This document shows positions 14,415-31,072 of a stretch of 64,000 nt of DNA, piece after piece. Location of the stretch: the NCBI GenBank assembly GCA_965238175.1, contig CBDEGZ010000003.1, positions 396,357 through 460,356 on the forward strand, given 5' to 3'. The position numbers and the translations under genes are program-made. The notes beneath the pieces were generated by a model. The model saw nothing but the letters and a program-made list of their open reading frames with translations. It was not told the origin of the DNA and did no database searches. The DNA is from Gammaproteobacteria bacterium. GTDB taxonomy: Bacteria > Pseudomonadota > Gammaproteobacteria > CAJXQU01. How positions within the stretch are numbered: position 1 is the first letter of the stretch; every line of letters begins with the position of its first letter.

Positions 14415-16082
<1,668 letters not shown>

Positions 16083-16104
16083 TTAAATTCGATTTTAGTT
16101 CTGA

Positions 16105-16392
16105 TTATTCGATAACGCCCATGATGTCATCTTCGCGCATGACAACCACTTCTTCACCATCAATTTTAATCTCAGTTCCAGAATATTTACCAAATAGAAC
16201 TGTATCGCCTACTTTCACATCAAGCGCTTGTATATTGCCTTGATCGTTAGCTTTACCAGAACCAGCAGCGATTACTTCGCCACGCATTGGTTTTTCAGTT
16301 GCAGAATCAGGGAGAACAATCCCGCCTGCACTTGTAGTTTCTTCTTCCATACGGCGTACAACAACGCGGTCATGTAATGGACGGATTTTCAT
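16105..16392 (-). CDS. groES: Co-chaperonin GroES
   Basis: 95 aa matching the GroES consensus [14 protein letters not shown]... Confidence 0.97.
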
Positions 16393-16480
16393 CTTTTAAG
16401 GTCTCCTAAAAACAGATAAAAGTTAAACAAACAGATTAAATTAGTAGCACTCTATCGAGGTGGTTGCTAATTATAGGTTT

Positions 16481-16510
16481 GCATATGGGGCTGTCAAGAT
16501 AAACTTCAAG
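16481..16510 (-). promoter_or_regulatory. Sigma-32 heat-shock promoter of groESL
   Basis: Minus strand reads CTTGAA-N14-CCCCATAT, matching the sigma-32 consensus CTTGAA / CCCCATnT. It lies about 90 nt upstream of the groES start. Confidence 0.6.
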
Positions 16511-16542
16511 TACAATTGGTCAATTAAAATAGAATTCCTTCA

Positions 16543-17022
16543 AAACCAGAGCTTTCAGGTGGATAAAATAAGATCACTTAGCCGTACCTTCATCAAAAGA
16601 AGTGAAAAACTTGCGCCTATCAATCTGCCACTTTCGCCACGCGAAAAAAGAGCCAAAGCAAAGAAAGCCTTGAAACGTCTGAGAACCATCGGCCACATCC
16701 TGCTCCGTGAACTCAGACACAAGCTCCCCAGTCACTGCCTTTCGAGTGCCATCAAAAAACCTTTTATGCTATGAGCGAGTACTGGCACAACAGCCCAAAG
16801 ATAAAAACAAAACCTACTCACTACATGACAACCATACTTTACCTGACGTATTCATGCATATCGAAACGTCACGGGCAAAGCCGTCCACAACCGTTTGCGT
16901 TCGAGACTATCGCAGCCATCATTGGCTATCTGAAATCAGATTTTCGGATATCAAGAAACTTCCTCAAAGGTATATCAGGCAATGAAATTAATCTGCTAAT
17001 GACAGCACTGTCTGGAACTTGA
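16543..17022 (+). pseudogene. IS5-family transposase remnant (frameshifted, no intact ORF)
   Basis: Three overlapping frame fragments are present. The last ends ...DFRISRNFLKGISGNEINLLMTALS, resembling the IS5/IS903-type C-terminus (…[27 protein letters not shown]). No intact DDE ORF and no clear inverted repeats were found. Confidence 0.4.
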
Positions 17023-17174
17023 AGAAATGGCTAGTCGCCATTTATCTGGCCTTATTTTTGTGGCTTAAAAGGTATGCTATACAGAATCAAAATCAACCCA
17101 GCATCAATGCAACGTTAAATCGAGGTTGCTCAGAGCCAAAGGCTTCTCTGGCAAATATCCATATCGTAAGTTGA

Positions 17175-17327
17175 AACTTTTTCAGAGGCGACTACTTTAG
17201 TGAATTTAATGCATTTTATGATGAGCGTGCACAAGCCTTACCGGATACGCTCCCTGAAATGTTCGAAAACCGCGCATGGAAAGAGGTTGTCGATAAGGCT
17301 GGCGGCGTTAGCATTCAGTACATATAA
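17175..17327 (+). pseudogene. Orphan C-terminal gene fragment (unknown protein)
   Basis: 50-codon stop-to-stop stretch NFFRGDYFSEFNAFYDERAQALPDTLPEMFENRAWKEVVDKAGGVSIQYI* with coding-like composition. It has no start codon or upstream reading frame. Confidence 0.25.
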
Positions 17328-17876
17328 CCAAGAAAGGAAAACAATAAATGTCATTAGAATATATCAATGTTTGTTTTAGAACAGCCGGACTTTAGATTGT
17401 GTTTCAATATTTTTACATATTGAAATTGAACCCGTTTTTTCAATCGGTGAAAAGCTTAATAAAATTAACGAAGAAGCCTATATGAGTGTCAAAGTCCAAA
17501 AACTGGACGCCCTTAGTAAATCGTAAAATTGAGAGTGTAGAAGTGATCTGGCATTGGGTGAGGCCGGTATATTCGAGAAGAAAACGTACTACCCTCAAAA
17601 CGTCTTACTAAAGTTTTCGGGTGAGGCCTCAGTCGTAATATCTACAATGGAAATAACTGATACTTCTCATTGGGGTATGGCTGACAATATTGTGGTATTT
17701 TTCAATGAACAAGTGGCTAGCAAATATAAGGCTTTAAATGCATAACAAAGCTGTCATAGGGACATTTTTTGCTTTGCTGTGTTGGGGGGTGGCTACGCCA
17801 CTTTACCTCAAAACCCCACTACACAAAAATGCCCTATACTGCAGCGTTATGTGATTACGAAAGTGAGTTCCAAGTA

Positions 17877-18317
17877 ATGAAAGGTGTAATATTCGTTGGT
17901 CTGCAAGCCAGTGGTAAGTCCTATTTTTATCTCAGGAAGCTTTATAAAACTCACCTACGCCTTAATATGGATATGCTAAAAACACGGCATAGGGAAAATA
18001 TTCTATTTAATGCATGCTTGGAATCGAAACAACCTGTTGTAATTGATAATACTAACTCTACGAAAAATGAGCGTGAAAAATACATTAGCGGTTTTAAGAA
18101 TCACCGTTTTGAGGTTATAGGGTTTTACTTTGCTTCCAGCTTGTCTGAATGCTTAGAAAGGAATGCATCCAGAAAGGGTAAAGAGAGAATACCAGACGTA
18201 GGTCTGAAAGGAACATACAGTAAGCTGGAATTGCCTACTTATTCTGAAGGTTTTGACAAGTTGTATTATGTATCCATGAAAAATGATGAATTTCTCATAG
18301 AGGAGTGGCAAAGATGA
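17877..18317 (+). CDS. Polynucleotide 5'-hydroxyl kinase (T4 Pnk kinase-domain-like P-loop protein)
   Basis: It has a Walker A motif GLQASGKS. VVIDNTN...ERNASRKGKERIPDVGLKGTY parallels T4 Pnk VIISDTNLN...[20 protein letters not shown]. The listed six-frame ORF begins at 17769, but the P-loop position favours Met at 17877. It overlaps the downstream TLP gene by 13 nt. Confidence 0.7.
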   Translation: MKGVIFVGLQASGKSYFYLRKLYKTHLRLNMDMLKTRHRENILFNACLESKQPVVIDNTNSTKNEREKYISGFKNHRFEVIGFYFASSLSECLERNASRKGKERIPDVGLKGTYSKLELPTYSEGFDKLYYVSMKNDEFLIEEWQR

Positions 18318-19078
18318 AGTTCAAGGAATTAGATAAGAAATTACGAGTTTTTGAAACCGCACATGATCATTGTGTTTTACCTGGCGTGTACATTGTAGCT
18401 AGAATTGACGGAAGATGTTTTACAACTTTAACCAAAGATAAACATCCGTTTGAAGCCCCCTATGACCCTAAGTTCAGAGATATGATGATTGAAACTGTGA
18501 AACATTTAATGCAATGTGGTTTCAAAGTTCTTTATGGATATACTCAAAGCGATGAAATATCACTGCTCTTAGATTTAAATGAGAATACATTCGAAAGAAA
18601 GGAACGAAAGATCAATTCAGTGCTAGCGGGAGAGGCAAGTGCGAAGTTTAGTTTGCTTCTTGGCGATATCGGAGCTTTTGATTGCCGTATTTGTCAACTT
18701 CCGAATAGGCAACTTGTAATCGACTACTTTCGCTGGAGAAACGAAGATGCCCATAGAAACGCCTTAAATTCCCACTGTTATTGGAGCCTTAGGAAGGAGG
18801 GTGTATCTCCAAAAGAGTCAGCTGCTACCTTTACAAAAATGTCTGTGGCGCAGAAAAATGAGTTCCTTTTTCAAAAAGGCACTAATTTTAATGATTTGCC
18901 AAGTTGGCAAAAAAGAGGACTGGGGGTGTATTGGGAGTCTTACGAAAAAGACGGCCTTAACCCAAGTACGAGGGAAAAGGTTAAAACTAATCGTAATCTT
19001 CTTAAGACCAATCTAGATCTCCCTATGAAAGAAAAATATAGCGATTTTATTCGTAACTTCGTGTCTGAACTCGTATAA
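18305..19078 (+). CDS. Thg1-like protein (TLP), tRNA 3'-5' nucleotidyltransferase
   Basis: MAKMKFKELDKK...YIVARIDGRCF...YGYTQSDEISLLL aligns with human and yeast Thg1 (MAKSKFEYV...VVVRLDGRNF...AYGQSDEYSFVF). The metal-binding Asp of RIDG and the SDE carboxylates are present. Confidence 0.85.
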   Translation: MAKMKFKELDKKLRVFETAHDHCVLPGVYIVARIDGRCFTTLTKDKHPFEAPYDPKFRDMMIETVKHLMQCGFKVLYGYTQSDEISLLLDLNENTFERKERKINSVLAGEASAKFSLLLGDIGAFDCRICQLPNRQLVIDYFRWRNEDAHRNALNSHCYWSLRKEGVSPKESAATFTKMSVAQKNEFLFQKGTNFNDLPSWQKRGLGVYWESYEKDGLNPSTREKVKTNRNLLKTNLDLPMKEKYSDFIRNFVSELV

Positions 19079-19231: not shown

Positions 19232-20008
19232 GTGAAAACGTTCTTAAAAATACTTGCCGGTATAGGTGCTATAGTGGTAATTGTTATTGTTGCCGTATTA
19301 TTCATGACTTCTGGCATGTCTGACACGGCAGACAAGTTCTTTGAGTCTGTGAAATCTGATAATTATGATGAGGCGTACTCATTATTATCAGAAGACTTTA
19401 AGAACAATACAAGCAAGAGTCAACTTAAAGAATACCTAACTAAAAATGCGCTAACCCATTTTAAAAAAGCAAGTTGGGAAAGTCGATCTACTAATGGAGG
19501 ACGTGGTGAGTTAACAGGCTCTATTATAACTGAATCAGGTGGTGGTGTACCAGTTTCTCTTAGTTTCATTAAAGGCGAAAACGATTGGAAAATATACTCA
19601 ATTAGAAAGCCCACCTCTGGCATACAAGAAGAAACTGAAACTGCACAAATCCCATCCGAAAAAGACCAAGTCAAGCTAGTTAATGAATCTATGCATCTAT
19701 TTGCTGTTTCTGTAAAAGAAAAAAACATGTCTAAGATGTTTGATCATGTTTCAAACCTTTGGCAAAAGCAAATCAGCGTTATCGAATTTGATGAAATATT
19801 CGGCTCATTTTATCAATTTGGTGATGCACTAATGATACTGGATCAACACTCACCACAATTTTCAGAAAAAGGCTCAATCAATGAAGAAGGGGTTTTATTG
19901 CTAAAAGGTTTATACCCCACCAAACCAAGTCAATTATATTTTGAACAAAAATACATCTATGAGGGTTTAGGTTGGAAGTTAATAGGACTCAATGTCAATA
20001 TTAAATAG
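19232..20008 (+). CDS. Membrane-anchored hypothetical protein (N-terminal TM, two tandem NTF2-like/DUF4878-like repeats)
   Basis: 258 aa. An N-terminal TM helix (ILAGIGAIVVIVIVAVLFM) is followed by two similar segments of about 100 aa. An RBS (aaagaggat) precedes the start. Confidence 0.5.
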   Translation: MKTFLKILAGIGAIVVIVIVAVLFMTSGMSDTADKFFESVKSDNYDEAYSLLSEDFKNNTSKSQLKEYLTKNALTHFKKASWESRSTNGGRGELTGSIITESGGGVPVSLSFIKGENDWKIYSIRKPTSGIQEETETAQIPSEKDQVKLVNESMHLFAVSVKEKNMSKMFDHVSNLWQKQISVIEFDEIFGSFYQFGDALMILDQHSPQFSEKGSINEEGVLLLKGLYPTKPSQLYFEQKYIYEGLGWKLIGLNVNIK

Positions 20009-20126
20009 AAAGACTAACAAAAACATTAAGTCGTTTTCTGCACTCACTGGGGTGTTCCGCTCGCATCTCGCTACGCCCCCTTTATGTTGGCGTTACATTA
20101 ATGTTACATTGAATTTAGGTGAAAGA

Positions 20127-20900
20127 ATGAGCAAATACATGCTAGTTATTTTTGCGCTTACGTTTTCCTGCTTTGCTTTTTCTCAAGGTGAGCAAAGCTC
20201 TGCTAAATATGTGACATATGGAGAGCTAATTAACTCTTTAGAAGAAATCGCAAAAAATAGCTTTGAAGATTCTGAAGTTCTTAGACGTGAATTTGTTAAA
20301 TTACAAAAGTCTCATGATGTGTCAAGTAGTGAGAATATTTATCGTAAATTCGTGCGAGTGCGAATGGCTTTCGAGGCCACAAGAGATTCAGGATTATGGC
20401 AATTACGCTGGGCTGTAACGAACAAAGAACCAAATTCCAGTTCAATTTGGAGTCAATGGAATCATCTTTCAAATCCGAAGTATATTGAAGAAAATGATGC
20501 GGAGCCCACTGCTGTGGCGGAATGTGATGAGCTTTCGGCGTTATTTGCCTTCATTTCCAGAGGGTTAGGTGTGAAGAACGTCGGCCTCTTCTGGCCAACT
20601 TGGAACCATACTGTGGCCGTGTGGACGACGGAAAACAAGAACGGTAATCTTGTGCGTATTGTTATCCCTACATCTCAAATATTCATTAGCGAAAATGCAA
20701 CATTGGGCACTAAAGAGTTTGATCCTTATAAACAGAAAAATATTTATGAATATAGCCGTAAGGATATACAGAAAGATCATAAGATCTCAGCGGGGTTGGC
20801 GGAAATGATGATCCGGCAGGTTAAAGAATACGGCGCTAAGCCATCCTCTTATTTGCAAGACCGTAGAAATCGGCTATCTCAACTGTTTGGTGGATCATAA
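20127..20900 (+). CDS. Secreted hypothetical protein, possibly transglutaminase-like (papain-fold) family
   Basis: A signal peptide MSKYMLVIFALTFSCFAFSQ is preceded by an RBS (aggtgaaaga). The Cys context ECDELSALFAFISRGLG and a downstream His (WNHTVAVW) resemble TGc-superfamily catalytic motifs; this is recalled from memory rather than aligned. The listed six-frame ORF starts at 19992. Confidence 0.45.
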   Translation: MSKYMLVIFALTFSCFAFSQGEQSSAKYVTYGELINSLEEIAKNSFEDSEVLRREFVKLQKSHDVSSSENIYRKFVRVRMAFEATRDSGLWQLRWAVTNKEPNSSSIWSQWNHLSNPKYIEENDAEPTAVAECDELSALFAFISRGLGVKNVGLFWPTWNHTVAVWTTENKNGNLVRIVIPTSQIFISENATLGTKEFDPYKQKNIYEYSRKDIQKDHKISAGLAEMMIRQVKEYGAKPSSYLQDRRNRLSQLFGGS

Positions 20901-27675: not shown

Positions 27676-29262
27676 TTATAAATCCTTAAATTTCAGATTA
27701 TATTTATTTAAGTAAACTCTTATTCGCTGTGAATCATTATTAGTTTCCTTTTTTGAACTACTTCGATTAAAAAGTTGCCTACCTGCATCAGCCATACTTT
27801 TGCTTTCTTTGCAGAGACGAATAACATGTGTAAGTTGTGCCTGTTCAAACAAATCTAGATTTTCATAAGCTCCACTTGTGAGCGTATTTTTAAGCAGCTC
27901 ATCATCACTATTGCTTTTAGAATCTTTGTAACCATTCCAATCCATCTGTAATCGCTGTATTTCATGATCAACAATACTCTCCGTAATTCGGCCACCCGTC
28001 GCTAAGGTTGCCATTCGGGTGATACTCGAATTCAGATCACGAAAGTTTGCTTTCCATTCAGCGAAAGAACTTAACGAGAACGCAAGGTATTTTGATTTTG
28101 CCGAGCTGTTAAAACCAATTTTATGATTCATATCCTGTGCATAGCGTTGAAGTTCATATTCTATATTTGGTTCAATATCTTCATAACGTTCTTTGAGTGA
28201 AGGCAGCTGGTAGTTCCACAAGTTGATTCTGGCTAGTAGATCTTCTCTGAATTTACCTTCTTCAACGAGTTGATAGAGATTGCGATTTGTTCCTGCGATG
28301 AGCTGAAAATCGCTGCTGACTTTTTGATCGGAACCAAACGGAGTAAACACTTTTTCTTCAATCGCTCGTAGTAACATGGCTTGTTCGTCTAAACCGAGCT
28401 CACCGATTTCATCCAAAAAAAGTAACCCGTGATTTGCTTCTAATAATAATCCATTTCGATTATTCACAGCTCCTGTATAGGCGCCCTTTATATGCCCAAA
28501 CAGCGTAGACATGGCATTATCACCACGCAATGTTGCGCAATTAACTTCGACTAATTGCCCTTTAAGCTGTGTGCGCTGCTGTTTTAATTCGTATATTTTT
28601 TTGGCTAAATGTGACTTGCCAACACCAGTTGGTCCCATCAATAAAATAGGCGCTTTTGATCGAATAGCAACTTGCTCAATTTCATCAATAAGTTGGTTAT
28701 ATCGTTTATTGCGGGTTTCGATTCCATCTTTAAGATAACTAATGTCTTGTTGGGCATCGCGGTTAAATCGAGAGGCAATTTGATCATAACGAGAAAGATC
28801 CAGATCAATAGTAAATAACTCACCATGCGCACCTTCTTTACTCGGTGCAGTCTGAATCAGTTTACCCGGGAAATAATTCGCTTCAGTCAGCAGATAAATA
28901 CAGATCTGTGCGACGTGCGTTCCTGTCGTGATATGAAAATGGTAGTTGTTATTTTCAGGATCAAAATTGTAAGCATGTGAAAAGTCGTGCAGTTGACTAT
29001 AGACCTGCTCAAAATCCCAGGGATCATCATAGTCTACAAGGTAAATAGAAATCTCAATATCCAGGCAAAGAGTGCTGATGTCTTTTAAAGTGAGGTCTAA
29101 TAATGCCTGATCTTGTTTGTGATAGATCAGGATCAATTCATCAACTGGAAACTCATGGTGCATCAACAATGACATGGTTGGACGCCAGCGTAACCAGCGC
29201 TTACTTCCAAGGCCTACATTATCAAGACGAGAGCCTAAAATCCCAATAACTATATTATTCAT
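27676..29262 (-). CDS. rtcR: Sigma-54-dependent transcriptional regulator RtcR
   Basis: 528 aa, co-linear with E. coli RtcR throughout. Shared segments include GSKRWLRWRPT, HITTGTHVAQICIYLL, GPTGVGKSHLA, EVNCATLRGDNAMSTLFGHIKGAYTGA, FREDLLARINLW and TRMATLATGGRIT. Confidence 0.9.
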   Translation of the reverse strand: MNNIVIGILGSRLDNVGLGSKRWLRWRPTMSLLMHHEFPVDELILIYHKQDQALLDLTLKDISTLCLDIEISIYLVDYDDPWDFEQVYSQLHDFSHAYNFDPENNNYHFHITTGTHVAQICIYLLTEANYFPGKLIQTAPSKEGAHGELFTIDLDLSRYDQIASRFNRDAQQDISYLKDGIETRNKRYNQLIDEIEQVAIRSKAPILLMGPTGVGKSHLAKKIYELKQQRTQLKGQLVEVNCATLRGDNAMSTLFGHIKGAYTGAVNNRNGLLLEANHGLLFLDEIGELGLDEQAMLLRAIEEKVFTPFGSDQKVSSDFQLIAGTNRNLYQLVEEGKFREDLLARINLWNYQLPSLKERYEDIEPNIEYELQRYAQDMNHKIGFNSSAKSKYLAFSLSSFAEWKANFRDLNSSITRMATLATGGRITESIVDHEIQRLQMDWNGYKDSKSNSDDELLKNTLTSGAYENLDLFEQAQLTHVIRLCKESKSMADAGRQLFNRSSSKKETNNDSQRIRVYLNKYNLKFKDL

Positions 29263-29401
29263 AAATATATAATTATATATTTATAGATAGATTTCAAGAA
29301 TATTATCTATCATCATATTTCTACTAAAACACATCATAAAAAAAATATTAATTTATATATTTCAATAACTTAAATATAAATTTCCAAGCTTGCAAAAAAG
29401 C

Positions 29402-29417
29402 TGGCAGGCCCATTGCA
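29402..29417 (+). promoter_or_regulatory. Sigma-54 (-24/-12) promoter for rtcB
   Basis: TGGCAG-gccca-TTGCA matches TGGCAC-N5-TTGCW. It lies about 70 nt upstream of the rtcB start, in the AT-rich rtcR/rtcB divergent region. Confidence 0.65.
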
Positions 29418-29484
29418 ATAATCTCTATCGAAAACAATTGAAACGAATACTAAATTACTAAACAAGAATAGAAGGAAGATCAAA

Positions 29485-30738
29485 ATGGACCAGCAAAACA
29501 ACATTAAAAACTCAAGCAACTATGACGTGTTATACGCAAATATTTCGAGAGTACCGGTTAAGTCATGGACCAAAGGTGTGCCGTTTGATCAGAATTCAAA
29601 GGATCAATTATTGAGCCTTTCGCAAATGCCTTTTATCCATAAATGGATTGCGGCAATGCCTGATGTTCATGTTGGGAAAGGGGCCACGATAGGAAGCGTC
29701 ATCCCAACATTTGGTGCGGTTATTCCTGCTGCCGTCGGTGTGGATTTAGGTTGCGGAATGATGGCAGCAAAAACGACTCTGACGGCCAATGACCTGCCTG
29801 ACGATTTAGCTGATATGCGTAGCGCAATTGAAAGTTTGGTTCCACATGGTCGCTCTGCTCGACGTCGTGGTGGTCGTGATAAAGGTAGCTGGGGAAATAT
29901 ACCAGATGATGTGGCTGAAGCATGGTCGCCACTAGCTGATGGATTTGATCGCCTGGTTGAAAAGCATCCGTTTTTGAAGAATACCAATAACGTCGCGCAT
30001 TTAGGAACATTGGGAACAGGTAATCACTTTGTAGAGATCTGCCTGGACGAAAATGAGGATGTCTGGGTGATGTTACATAGCGGATCTCGTGGTGTGGGTA
30101 ATGCGATTGGAAGACATTTTATCGAAAAAGCACAACGAGATATGGAACGCTGGTTTATTCATTTGCCTGATCGAGATCTGGCTTATATACCAGAGGGCAG
30201 CGAGCAGTTTGGTCACTATATTTCTGCAGTGTCATGGGCACAAGATTTTGCCCGCATTAATCGTGAAATAATGATGCAGCGAACATTGCAAGCCATGACT
30301 GATGTTTTACCAATAGCATTTACGGCTGATGTAGAAGCGGTGAATTGTCACCATAACTACATCCGTAAAGAGAACCACTACGACGAAAACGTGTGGGTCA
30401 CTCGAAAAGGTGCGGTGAGTGCTCGCAAAGGCGAAATGGGCATTATCCCAGGAAGTATGGGTGCGAAATCATTCATCGTTCGAGGGCTTGGAAATGAAGA
30501 AAGCTTTTGTAGTTGTAGCCATGGAGCAGGACGTGTGATGTCACGTACTCAAGCAAAAAAAGTAGTTTCATTAGCAGAACACGTTCAAGCCACGAAAGGT
30601 GTGGAATGCCGTAAAGATGCGAGTGTAATTGATGAAACTCCAGCAGCGTATAAACCGATTGAACAAGTCATGGAAGCACAAAATGATCTTGTGGAAATAG
30701 TACATACCTTAAAGCAGGTCGTGTGCGTAAAAGGATAA
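29485..30738 (+). CDS. rtcB: RNA-splicing ligase RtcB (3'-phosphate/5'-hydroxyl RNA ligase)
   Basis: 417 aa, near-colinear with E. coli RtcB. Shared segments include MPDVHVGKGATIGSVIPT, GTLGTGNHFVEICLDE, HSGSRGVGNAIG, NCHHNY and SFCSCSHGAGRVMSRT. Confidence 0.92.
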   Translation: MDQQNNIKNSSNYDVLYANISRVPVKSWTKGVPFDQNSKDQLLSLSQMPFIHKWIAAMPDVHVGKGATIGSVIPTFGAVIPAAVGVDLGCGMMAAKTTLTANDLPDDLADMRSAIESLVPHGRSARRRGGRDKGSWGNIPDDVAEAWSPLADGFDRLVEKHPFLKNTNNVAHLGTLGTGNHFVEICLDENEDVWVMLHSGSRGVGNAIGRHFIEKAQRDMERWFIHLPDRDLAYIPEGSEQFGHYISAVSWAQDFARINREIMMQRTLQAMTDVLPIAFTADVEAVNCHHNYIRKENHYDENVWVTRKGAVSARKGEMGIIPGSMGAKSFIVRGLGNEESFCSCSHGAGRVMSRTQAKKVVSLAEHVQATKGVECRKDASVIDETPAAYKPIEQVMEAQNDLVEIVHTLKQVVCVKG

Positions 30739-30930: not shown

Positions 30931-30996
30931 ATCGTTATAGCTAAATGGTAAAGCGCTGGAAACAGTCATGTGATGGTTCGACTCCATCTAACGATG
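30931..30996 (+). ncRNA. Truncated tRNA-like element (66 nt): intact acceptor, D-like and T arms, no normal anticodon arm
   Basis: The 7-bp acceptor (ATCGTTA/TAACGAT) is perfect and is followed by U8A9. D-like GCT-AAATGGTAA-AGC. T-arm GATGG-TTCGACT-CCATC. Only 16 nt separate the D arm from the T stem, where about 22 are expected. No CCA is present. Confidence 0.5.
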
Positions 30997-30998
30997 CT

Positions 30999-31072
30999 AT
31001 CACTATAGCTCATATGGTTAGAGCAGTTGACTCAAAATCAATTTGTAGCCGGTTCGAATCCGGCTAGTGAAC
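30999..31072 (+). tRNA. Non-canonical tRNA-like gene (74 nt), Met/Ile-family-like body with anticodon loop CTCAAAA (CAA) and an A1·A72 mismatch
   Basis: D-arm AGCTCATATGGTTAGAGCA resembles E. coli elongator tRNA-Met (AGCTCAGTTGGTTAGAGCA). The anticodon arm GTTGA-CTCAAAA-TCAAT gives anticodon CAA with a 5-nt variable loop, so it is not a class-II tRNA-Leu. T-arm GCCGG-TTCGAAT-CCGGC. The acceptor ATCACTA/TAGTGAA has a terminal A·A mismatch. It starts 2 nt after the preceding tRNA-like element and encodes no CCA. Confidence 0.5.

Follow-up and report, generated by a model that had tools for sequence, protein, structure and literature searches.

Two overlapping genes in a 64,000-nucleotide stretch of a gammaproteobacterial genome (NCBI GenBank assembly GCA_965238175.1, contig CBDEGZ010000003.1, positions 396,357 to 460,356 of the forward strand; hereafter the window, whose own numbering is used throughout) probably form a translationally coupled module that rebuilds the 5' ends of RNA, a function that we infer from sequence. 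The upstream gene (17877..18317, + strand, including the stop codon at 18315-18317) encodes a 146-aa kinase-only P-loop protein resembling polynucleotide 5'-kinases, and the downstream gene (18314..19078, + strand, including the stop codon) a predicted Thg1-like 3'-5' nucleotidyltransferase of 254 aa, called here the Thg1-like protein (TLP). The case for such a module draws on 1) the integrity of both enzymes; 2) the presence of their catalytic residues; 3) the fold of the kinase; 4) the overlap between the two genes; 5) their co-conservation; 6) at least one natural fusion; and 7) the RNA-repair genes that surround the pair in other genomes. The system itself is already known: it was predicted computationally in 2010, and the locus in the window is an ordinary member of it. 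An earlier note on this DNA had implied that the pair and its mechanism were novel, a claim that falls, since both the operon and the identical rationale had been published (Anantharaman, Iyer and Aravind, Biol Direct 2010;5:43; PMC2904730).

A kinase-only protein of the polynucleotide 5'-kinase clade

Both genes are intact on the + strand, as seen in the open reading frame (ORF) listing and in the sequence itself, and by sequence comparison the features of the two proteins are far beyond chance, with E-values between 1e-13 and 1e-31 and homologues numbering in the thousands. The kinase matches Pfam AAA_33 (E 2.6e-13, 50.9 bits, cut-off 27) and has 2360 homologues in the database, nearly all of about 148 aa and starting at the equivalent methionine with MxG(I/V)IF; the protein of the window is two residues short of this usual length. 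The earlier description of a 146-aa P-loop kinase starting at Met 17877, with Walker A, DNTN and RNxSxKG hallmarks, is borne out by the start shared with the homologues and by the presence of the P-loop, DNTN and R95-x3-R99 motifs. Two other possible starts, TTG 17769 (giving a 182-aa ORF) and ATG 17829, find no support in the homologues, and the 182-aa ORF is an artefact of ORF calling. Annotated Microbulbifer proteins are 79-85% identical to the window proteins, and in public annotation the kinase's close homologues carry no label more specific than 'AAA family ATPase' or 'ATP-binding protein'.

An alignment with 24 homologues places the invariant positions of the kinase at the sites expected of a polynucleotide 5'-kinase. 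In the Walker A motif, or P-loop, G8-L-Q-A-S-G-K-S15 (codons 17898..17921, + strand), G8 and S12-G13-K14 are invariant and the motif aligns with the P-loop of PNKP. Asp32, within N-M-D-M-L (codon 17970..17972, + strand), is the predicted general base activating the 5'-OH; it is invariant and aligned with the Asp of the NRD motif in mouse PNKP. The D57-N-T-N60 motif (codons 18045..18056, + strand) is also invariant, and the VVIDNTN segment is identical in mouse PNKP. Finally, the RxxxR lid motif R95-N-A-S-R99 (codons 18159..18173, + strand) has invariant N96 and R99 and an R95 conserved in at least 90% of the sequences, and the invariant W144, close to the C-terminus, is retained in the window protein.

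With phmmer, the whole kinase aligns to the kinase domain of mouse PNKP, D32 (LNMDML) falling on the Asp of VNRDTL. The profile built from the 24 homologues retrieves the same mouse domain (E 2.7e-12) and the Pnk of Clostridium thermocellum (CthPnk, 1e-5), together with PSTK and the stand-alone kinases of Mucorales. The kinase also weakly matches the kinase portions of the NCBIfam models for PNK-3'Pase, PSTK and bacterial Pnkp. The alignment to the two bifunctional models is confined to the kinase segment, and their whole-protein cut-offs are missed (TIGR01663 PNK-3'Pase, 37.9 bits versus 502.8; TIGR04075 bacterial Pnkp, 16.4 versus 750), which indicates that the protein is kinase-only. An AlphaFold model (predicted local distance difference test, pLDDT, 92) was compared with solved structures by Foldseek: the mouse PNKP kinase domain came first with a template-modelling score (TM-score) of 0.82, followed by the Mucorales kinases (0.75-0.77), CthPnk (0.71-0.74) and T4 Pnk (0.62). 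Ranks 1-17 are taken up entirely by PNKP, CthPnk and the RNA 5'-OH kinases of Mucorales; PSTK and PFKFB come next, and T4 Pnk stands at rank 37. Hence, by profile, residues and modelled fold, the protein belongs to the polynucleotide 5'-kinase clade, with a predicted activity to match. The profile search had been set beforehand as the check on kinase homology, and the AAA_33 match answers it; a zeta-toxin or adenylate-kinase identity is ruled out by the profile, the residues and the fold.

A Thg1-like protein with three catalytic carboxylates

The TLP matches both Pfam domains of its family, Thg1 (E 4.1e-31, 108 bits, cut-off 29.2) and Thg1C (E 6.1e-14, 52.7 bits, cut-off 26.3), and has 7803 database homologues. 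Among solved structures its closest relative is the archaeal TLP of Methanosarcina acetivorans (MaTLP; 5AXK, E 7.6e-30), while the TLP of Bacillus thuringiensis (BtTLP; 4KGK, 3.6e-20) and human THG1 (3OTB, 3.8e-20) are level at about 4e-20. Asp32 of the RIDG motif (codon 18407..18409, + strand), the first metal-binding carboxylate, is invariant among 24 homologues and falls, in alignment, on the Asp of RxDG in human THG1 and in the two solved TLPs; the second and third catalytic carboxylates lie in S79-D80-E81 (codons 18548..18556, + strand), a motif that is invariant and aligned with the SDE of all solved Thg1 and TLP structures. D32, D80 and E81 are thus invariant in the homologues, and the same residues occur in 5AXK, 4KGK and 3OTB. 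Orthologues in Corallococcus (Myxococcaceae) are 64-66% identical to the window protein. The assignment to the Thg1 family, with its RIDG Asp and SDE carboxylates, was correct in the earlier note; the MAKxKFE N-terminus given there was not, the conserved start yielding MKFKELD.

Compared with the characterised TLPs, namely MaTLP (5AXK), BtTLP (4KGK; PMC3061083, PMC3701042) and the enzyme of Myxococcus xanthus, the window TLP has the same domains and the same three carboxylates. Its alignments with MaTLP and BtTLP, with the E-values given above, are full-length. BtTLP is about 28% identical to the window protein, and the plasmid gene taken to encode it follows SLOG and GIY-YIG genes, with no kinase. 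The studies of these three enzymes examined no partner kinase.

The two reading frames overlap

At the junction of the two genes (18300..18317, + strand), a GGAG at 18300-18303 precedes the TLP start codon, ATG 18314, by 10 nt, and the kinase stop codon TGA lies at 18315-18317, so that the genes share the four nucleotides ATGA (18314-18317). This start is the one with which the residues M1-K2-F3 are invariant in the 24 homologues, and the 100%-identical database entry has the same 254 aa. The upstream GTG 18305, from which an overlap of 13 nt had been counted before, is contradicted by the invariant M1-K2-F3. The overlap and the translational coupling proposed in the earlier note consequently stand, with a size of 4 nt instead of 13. 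Overlapping frames are the rule in other genomes: they occur in 119 of 125 adjacent kinase-TLP pairs (1-14 nt), where overlaps of 11 nt (n=92), 14 nt (n=16) and 4 nt (n=10) account for 118 pairs together. That the pair of the window falls in the 4-nt class is due to its kinase, which lacks two residues of the usual length.

The pair is conserved across phyla and sometimes fused

Co-conservation in other genomes had been put forward as a check that could refute the module, and it was found from both sides. On the kinase side, one genome per GTDB species was scanned with the kinase alignment, giving 80 loci in at least seven phyla, of which 78 are informative, the contigs of the remaining two ending at the kinase. 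A TLP gene lies directly downstream, within a few nucleotides of the kinase end, in 63 of these 78 loci, and 61 of these TLPs are full length. Such pairs span Gammaproteobacteria, Cyanobacteria, Chloroflexota, Planctomycetota, Myxococcota, Acidobacteriota and Bacillota. In one further locus a 1.15-kb insertion separates the two genes, placing the TLP 1.15 kb downstream. In another, from Paenibacillus vulneris (our locus L078, 5252-6432), the order is reversed: a BtTLP-like TLP, 27% identical to that of the window, lies immediately upstream of the kinase. To judge from sequence and order, this arrangement seems to have brought the two families together independently, and as such it is further evidence of the linkage between kinase and TLP. 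On the TLP side, the kinase is directly upstream in 58 of the 75 metagenomic TLP loci that have upstream room. On these sequence comparisons, the pair is a conserved functional unit, which is not an obligatory one.

Natural fusions were sought among 1.84 billion cluster representatives, in which 65 kinase clusters reach an E-value of 1e-30 or better. Two entries join the kinase to a TLP, P0256 (397 aa) and P0273 (418 aa), and both carry AAA_33, Thg1 and Thg1C. P0273 has no internal start methionine at the junction, which argues that it is a genuine fusion and not an assembly artefact; P0256 may be such an artefact. Members of the kinase family are fused to other domains as well (P0327, P0316, P0278 and P0350), in an RlaP-kinase protein (P0327, 408 aa), a WYL-kinase protein (327 aa) and kinase-DUF2797 proteins (452 and 448 aa). 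Several other proteins of the kinase family, of about 300-330 aa, have an extra region that matches no Pfam family.

A phage origin of the pair was considered and rejected: phage TLPs show about 30% identity, and phage genomes are practically devoid of the kinase. Among 38 kinase relatives on viral contigs, an adjacent kinase-TLP pair was present in only one. Relatives of the kinase with 31-37% identity occur in many contigs of giant-virus metagenome-assembled genomes (IMG/VR, our loci L168-L185), with no adjacent TLP.

RNA-repair genes around the pair

Clustering of all neighbours revealed no third gene generally conserved beside the kinase-TLP pair. Recognised RNA-repair genes surround it in about 20 of 160 loci. 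A cyanobacterial locus reads Hen1-kinase-TLP-Pnkp (L051, 197-5459), another locus RtcB-kinase-TLP-Hen1-Pnkp (L077, 4752-11177), and a third has a Hen1/Pnkp pair beside the kinase and the TLP (L069, 2098-6029). On a Deinococcus plasmid (L163, 3010-7735) the pair is accompanied by Hen1 and nucleotidyltransferase genes slightly further downstream. The loci linked to Hen1/Pnkp are thus cyanobacterial, Bacillota-like and from Deinococcus (plasmid), and Hen1/Pnkp cassettes that hold the pair carry two polynucleotide-kinase modules. The RlaP nucleotidyltransferase lies beside the pair in five loci and RtcB in seven, while PF09414 RNA ligases are found nearby in two loci and NUDIX genes in two.

Relation to known systems

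The closest precedent is the operon of bacterial Thg1 and a PNK-family P-loop kinase predicted by Anantharaman and colleagues. They called the kinase the 'most persistent association' of bacterial Thg1, proposed that it generates the 5'-phosphate substrate for Thg1, and saw in the operon a system for tRNA or RNA repair (PMC2904730). The families, the adjacent co-directional genes and the rationale are the same, and the pair in the window is essentially not different. That study also gives Macro-domain and RNA-ligase neighbours; among the neighbours of the pair that were checked here, no Macro-domain gene was seen. Our analysis adds to the 2010 prediction the two-way association counts, the conserved overlap of the frames, the fusions, and the neighbourhoods with Hen1, Pnkp, RtcB and RlaP.

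The kinase shares its fold, P-loop, catalytic Asp, and DNTN-type and RxxxR motifs with PNKP, CthPnk, T4 Pnk and the Mucorales kinases, to which it is 18-26% identical. It carries neither a phosphatase nor a ligase nor an FHA module. With its 146 aa it ranks with the smallest proteins of the polynucleotide 5'-kinase clade, and its conserved partner is a 3'-5' polymerase, not a ligase. The Mucorales enzymes, like the window kinase, are stand-alone and have no phosphatase: stand-alone RNA 5'-OH kinases (KIN) of Mucor, Rhizopus and Lichtheimia are characterised (PDB 9D8A, 9DRZ; PMC11571804), and Asp36 of the Mucor kinase, equivalent to Asp32 in the window, is essential (PMC11571804). A kinase-only RNA 5'-OH kinase thus has a biochemical precedent, which also tells against the novelty that the earlier note implied; the note was right that the literature holds no biochemistry on a kinase linked to a TLP, as far as we could find.

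The Pnkp/Hen1 and RtcB/RtcA pathways share with the pair the theme of healing ends left by ribotoxins, and in some lineages the pair is embedded in such cassettes. These pathways seal two fragments, whereas the pair of the window comes with no ligase, phosphatase or methyltransferase and would instead resynthesise lost 5' nucleotides.

A probable module for RNA 5'-end rebuilding and its alternatives

In the mechanism that we favour, the small kinase would first move a phosphate from an NTP to an RNA 5'-OH end, of the kind produced by metal-independent endoribonucleases and ribotoxins. The TLP would then activate the resulting 5'-monophosphate with ATP or GTP, and would finally add the missing nucleotides in the 3'-5' direction, templated by the opposite strand, which in a 5'-truncated tRNA would be the 3' side of the acceptor stem. 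We infer that RNA 5'-OH ends are the target of the kinase, that its step and those of the TLP would follow one another in vivo, and that tRNA acceptor stems are the most plausible natural substrate. The second half of this scheme, as the earlier note had it, agrees with published work: BtTLP and MaTLP, from a bacterium and an archaeon, preferentially rebuild 5'-truncated tRNAs in vitro by templated 3'-5' addition, with a 5'-monophosphate, activated beforehand by ATP, as the starting point (PMC3061083).

The partner kinase is the strongest available clue to the biological role of the bacterial Thg1-like reverse polymerases. A kinase that is conserved, often encoded in an overlapping gene and sometimes fused to the TLP implies that the natural substrates of the TLP have 5'-OH ends, i.e., that they are products of nucleases. 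Conceptually, the locus in the window is nothing new, being one more intact example; the overlap, the fusions and the contexts with Hen1, Pnkp, RtcB and RlaP make it more appealing to test the 2010 prediction experimentally.

Several observations weigh against 5'-end rebuilding by the pair. First, the association is not obligatory: of the 78 informative kinase loci, five have only a TLP remnant (about 6%) and eight have no TLP (about 10%). An intact kinase beside a TLP stub of 19-86 aa, or beside no TLP, is found in several Microbulbifer and cyanobacterial genomes (L009, 6434-6562; L027, 6437-6721; L067, 6440-6592; L071, 3165-3386; L042, 6440-6496; also L004, L005 and L015), which suggests, from sequence, either repeated loss of the TLP or a role of the kinase that is independent of it. 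Second, the kinase is absent at 16 of the 75 metagenomic TLP loci, about 21% of the close TLPs. Third, a TLP gene on the 235-kb plasmid of B. thuringiensis serovar israelensis (L161, 1324-4220) has no kinase neighbour and is preceded by a SLOG-family gene and a GIY-YIG nuclease gene. We take this plasmid TLP to be the biochemically characterised BtTLP, the best-studied bacterial TLP, by assumption and not by comparison of the two sequences. Fourth, cassettes with Pnkp already possess a kinase domain in that protein, and why they would need another kinase is not obvious. Fifth, among solved structures the kinase is closest to PNKP, which repairs DNA, so that a specificity for RNA is at most predicted. 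Sixth, the literature searches turned up no experiment, biochemical or genetic, on the kinase or on the coupled reaction, and reviews of 2019 and 2024 still call the natural substrates of bacterial TLPs unidentified.

Among the alternatives, two survive best, and we judge each of them unlikely. In one, the pair would not act by itself on tRNA 5' ends and is an accessory to ligation in a broader repair of RNA breaks: it would phosphorylate the 5'-OH fragment and refill the lost nucleotides before a ligase (RtcB, Pnkp or Rnl) seals the break, a task left in this genome to the unlinked rtcB. The Hen1/Pnkp, RtcB, RlaP and RNA-ligase cassettes around the pair in about 20 of the 160 loci speak for such a role, as do the RlaP-kinase fusion P0327 and the presence of rtcR and rtcB in the same window (27676-30738). 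However, most loci, that of the window included, have no ligase in the flanks that were fetched, and the rtcB of the window is 10.4 kb away behind housekeeping genes. Moreover, RtcB joins 3'-phosphate or cyclic-phosphate ends to 5'-OH ends, so that a 5'-kinase would oppose this ligase and not feed it. In the other alternative, the kinase and the TLP form a physical complex, as suggested by the conserved overlap and the natural fusions, whose general task would be to fill gaps in RNA. Once a ribotoxin has cut and nucleotides have been lost, this complex would add a phosphate to the recessed 5'-OH and rebuild the lost segment with the complementary strand as template, by itself or ahead of a ligase that depends on a 5'-phosphate (Pnkp/Hen1 or Rnl). 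PNKP is known for its action on recessed 5' ends, which would suit this reading; to our knowledge, an RNA counterpart of DNA gap repair has never been demonstrated in bacteria.

Slightly less likely still is a main role in the maintenance of tRNA-His, where the TLP would add or restore G-1 opposite C73 and the kinase would rescue 5'-OH molecules or have an unrelated role. Bacterial and archaeal TLPs, including the M. xanthus enzyme, do add a C73-templated G-1 in vitro (2019 review), and the Corallococcus orthologues, from the family of M. xanthus (Myxococcaceae), are the 64-66% identical proteins mentioned above. Yet the bacterial G-1 is encoded in the genome and kept by RNase P, making this role redundant, and RNase P products bear a 5'-phosphate, leaving a dedicated, coupled kinase unexplained. 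In the work on BtTLP and the archaeal MaTLP (PMC3061083), where BtTLP was the only bacterial TLP measured, 5'-truncated tRNAs were favoured 5- to 160-fold across several tRNA identities, a preference common to all bacterial and archaeal TLPs tested according to the 2019 review. The RNA-repair neighbours also point elsewhere.

It is improbable that the kinase acts on another substrate, for instance the 5' ends of DNA, like PNKP, a moiety linked to tRNA, like PSTK, or a small molecule, its link to the TLP being regulatory or coincidental. Its best match in structure and sequence is indeed a DNA-repair kinase, the tRNA-binding PSTK and KTI12 are detectable relatives too, and AAA_33 is a broad family. 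Nevertheless, all residues that define polynucleotide 5'-kinases are invariant, and enzymes of the clade commonly take both RNA and DNA, an example being the Mucor stand-alone kinase (PMC11571804). The conserved overlap, the TLP fusion and the RNA-repair neighbours argue for a common RNA substrate. Lastly, a decaying, horizontally acquired remnant that is functionless in this genome would fit the flanks common to no other locus, the 1.3 kb upstream with no recognisable gene, the TLP remnants beside intact kinases in several other genomes and the two residues missing from the usual 148 aa of the kinase, but it is very improbable, given that both ORFs are full length with all invariant residues, that the coupling junction with its GGAG is intact, and that the invariant W144 near the C-terminus of the kinase is kept.

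Genomic context and the question of transfer

In the window, the pair is flanked by groES/groEL (14415-16392, - strand) on one side and by two uncharacterised ORFs on the other, followed by hemB, pcnB, folK and a deoxynucleoside kinase gene. The pair is accordingly not part of an RNA-repair cassette with a ligase and a Hen1 methyltransferase or RtcA cyclase, its neighbours being groES/groEL, the two ORFs, hemB and pcnB. Genes rtcR (27676-29262) and rtcB (29485-30738) are real, and they constitute a separate, divergent unit 8.6-10.4 kb from the pair, beyond the housekeeping genes. Their distance of about 9 kb had been taken to imply horizontal acquisition, which does not follow, with hemB, pcnB, folK and the deoxynucleoside kinase gene lying in between. 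Transfer of the pair is nonetheless plausible on circumstantial signs in the sequences: its phyletic spread is patchy, it shares no flanks with other loci, and its G+C content is slightly lower (0.35-0.39 versus 0.40-0.45 nearby). In tblastn searches, groEL, groES, the two downstream ORFs and hemB were absent from all other loci, and pcnB gave one weak match of 59 aa in L159, which was not counted as synteny.

The earlier note had placed the pair in a degraded patch with insertion sequence (IS) remnants and gene stubs, for which we obtained no support. The stretch of about 1.3 kb from the groESL promoter to the kinase (16530-17870) has no ORF longer than 104 aa. Seven short ORFs at 16400-17870 belong to no Pfam family except for one match at chance level, and the same region matches nothing in 72,556 plasmids at either DNA or protein level, has no Rfam match and shows no similarity to the 160 related loci; repeats of at least 40 nt were found nowhere in the window. 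Part of the supposed patch is in fact the region of the groESL promoter: a perfect sigma-70 consensus, TTGACA and TATAAT with a 16-nt spacer, lies upstream of groES at 16497-16470 on the - strand, and from its sequence and position it is presumably the groESL promoter. Upstream of the pair, no TGGCAC-N5-TTGC-like (sigma-54/RtcR) site was seen on inspection by eye only.

The kinase, the TLP and the two downstream ORFs have no match to the anti-phage defence systems of PADLOC-DB 2.0. These two ORFs (19232-20900, + strand) overlap by 17 nt; the first encodes 258 aa with a hydrophobic N-terminus and a sub-threshold match to DUF3887, and the second 302 aa belonging to no Pfam family. Directly downstream of rtcB, at 30931-31072 on the + strand, there are two tandem tRNA-like elements that score 48.4 and 57.9 bits with the Rfam tRNA model. 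The first has no proper anticodon stem; the second is called tRNA-Leu(CAA) by ARAGORN, although a class II tRNA-Leu would be longer than its 75 nt. Both are covered by a weak match to YrlA, a Y-RNA-like family (22.6 bits, E 0.024), and the two elements may represent a non-coding RNA that resembles tRNA and belongs to the rtc operon.

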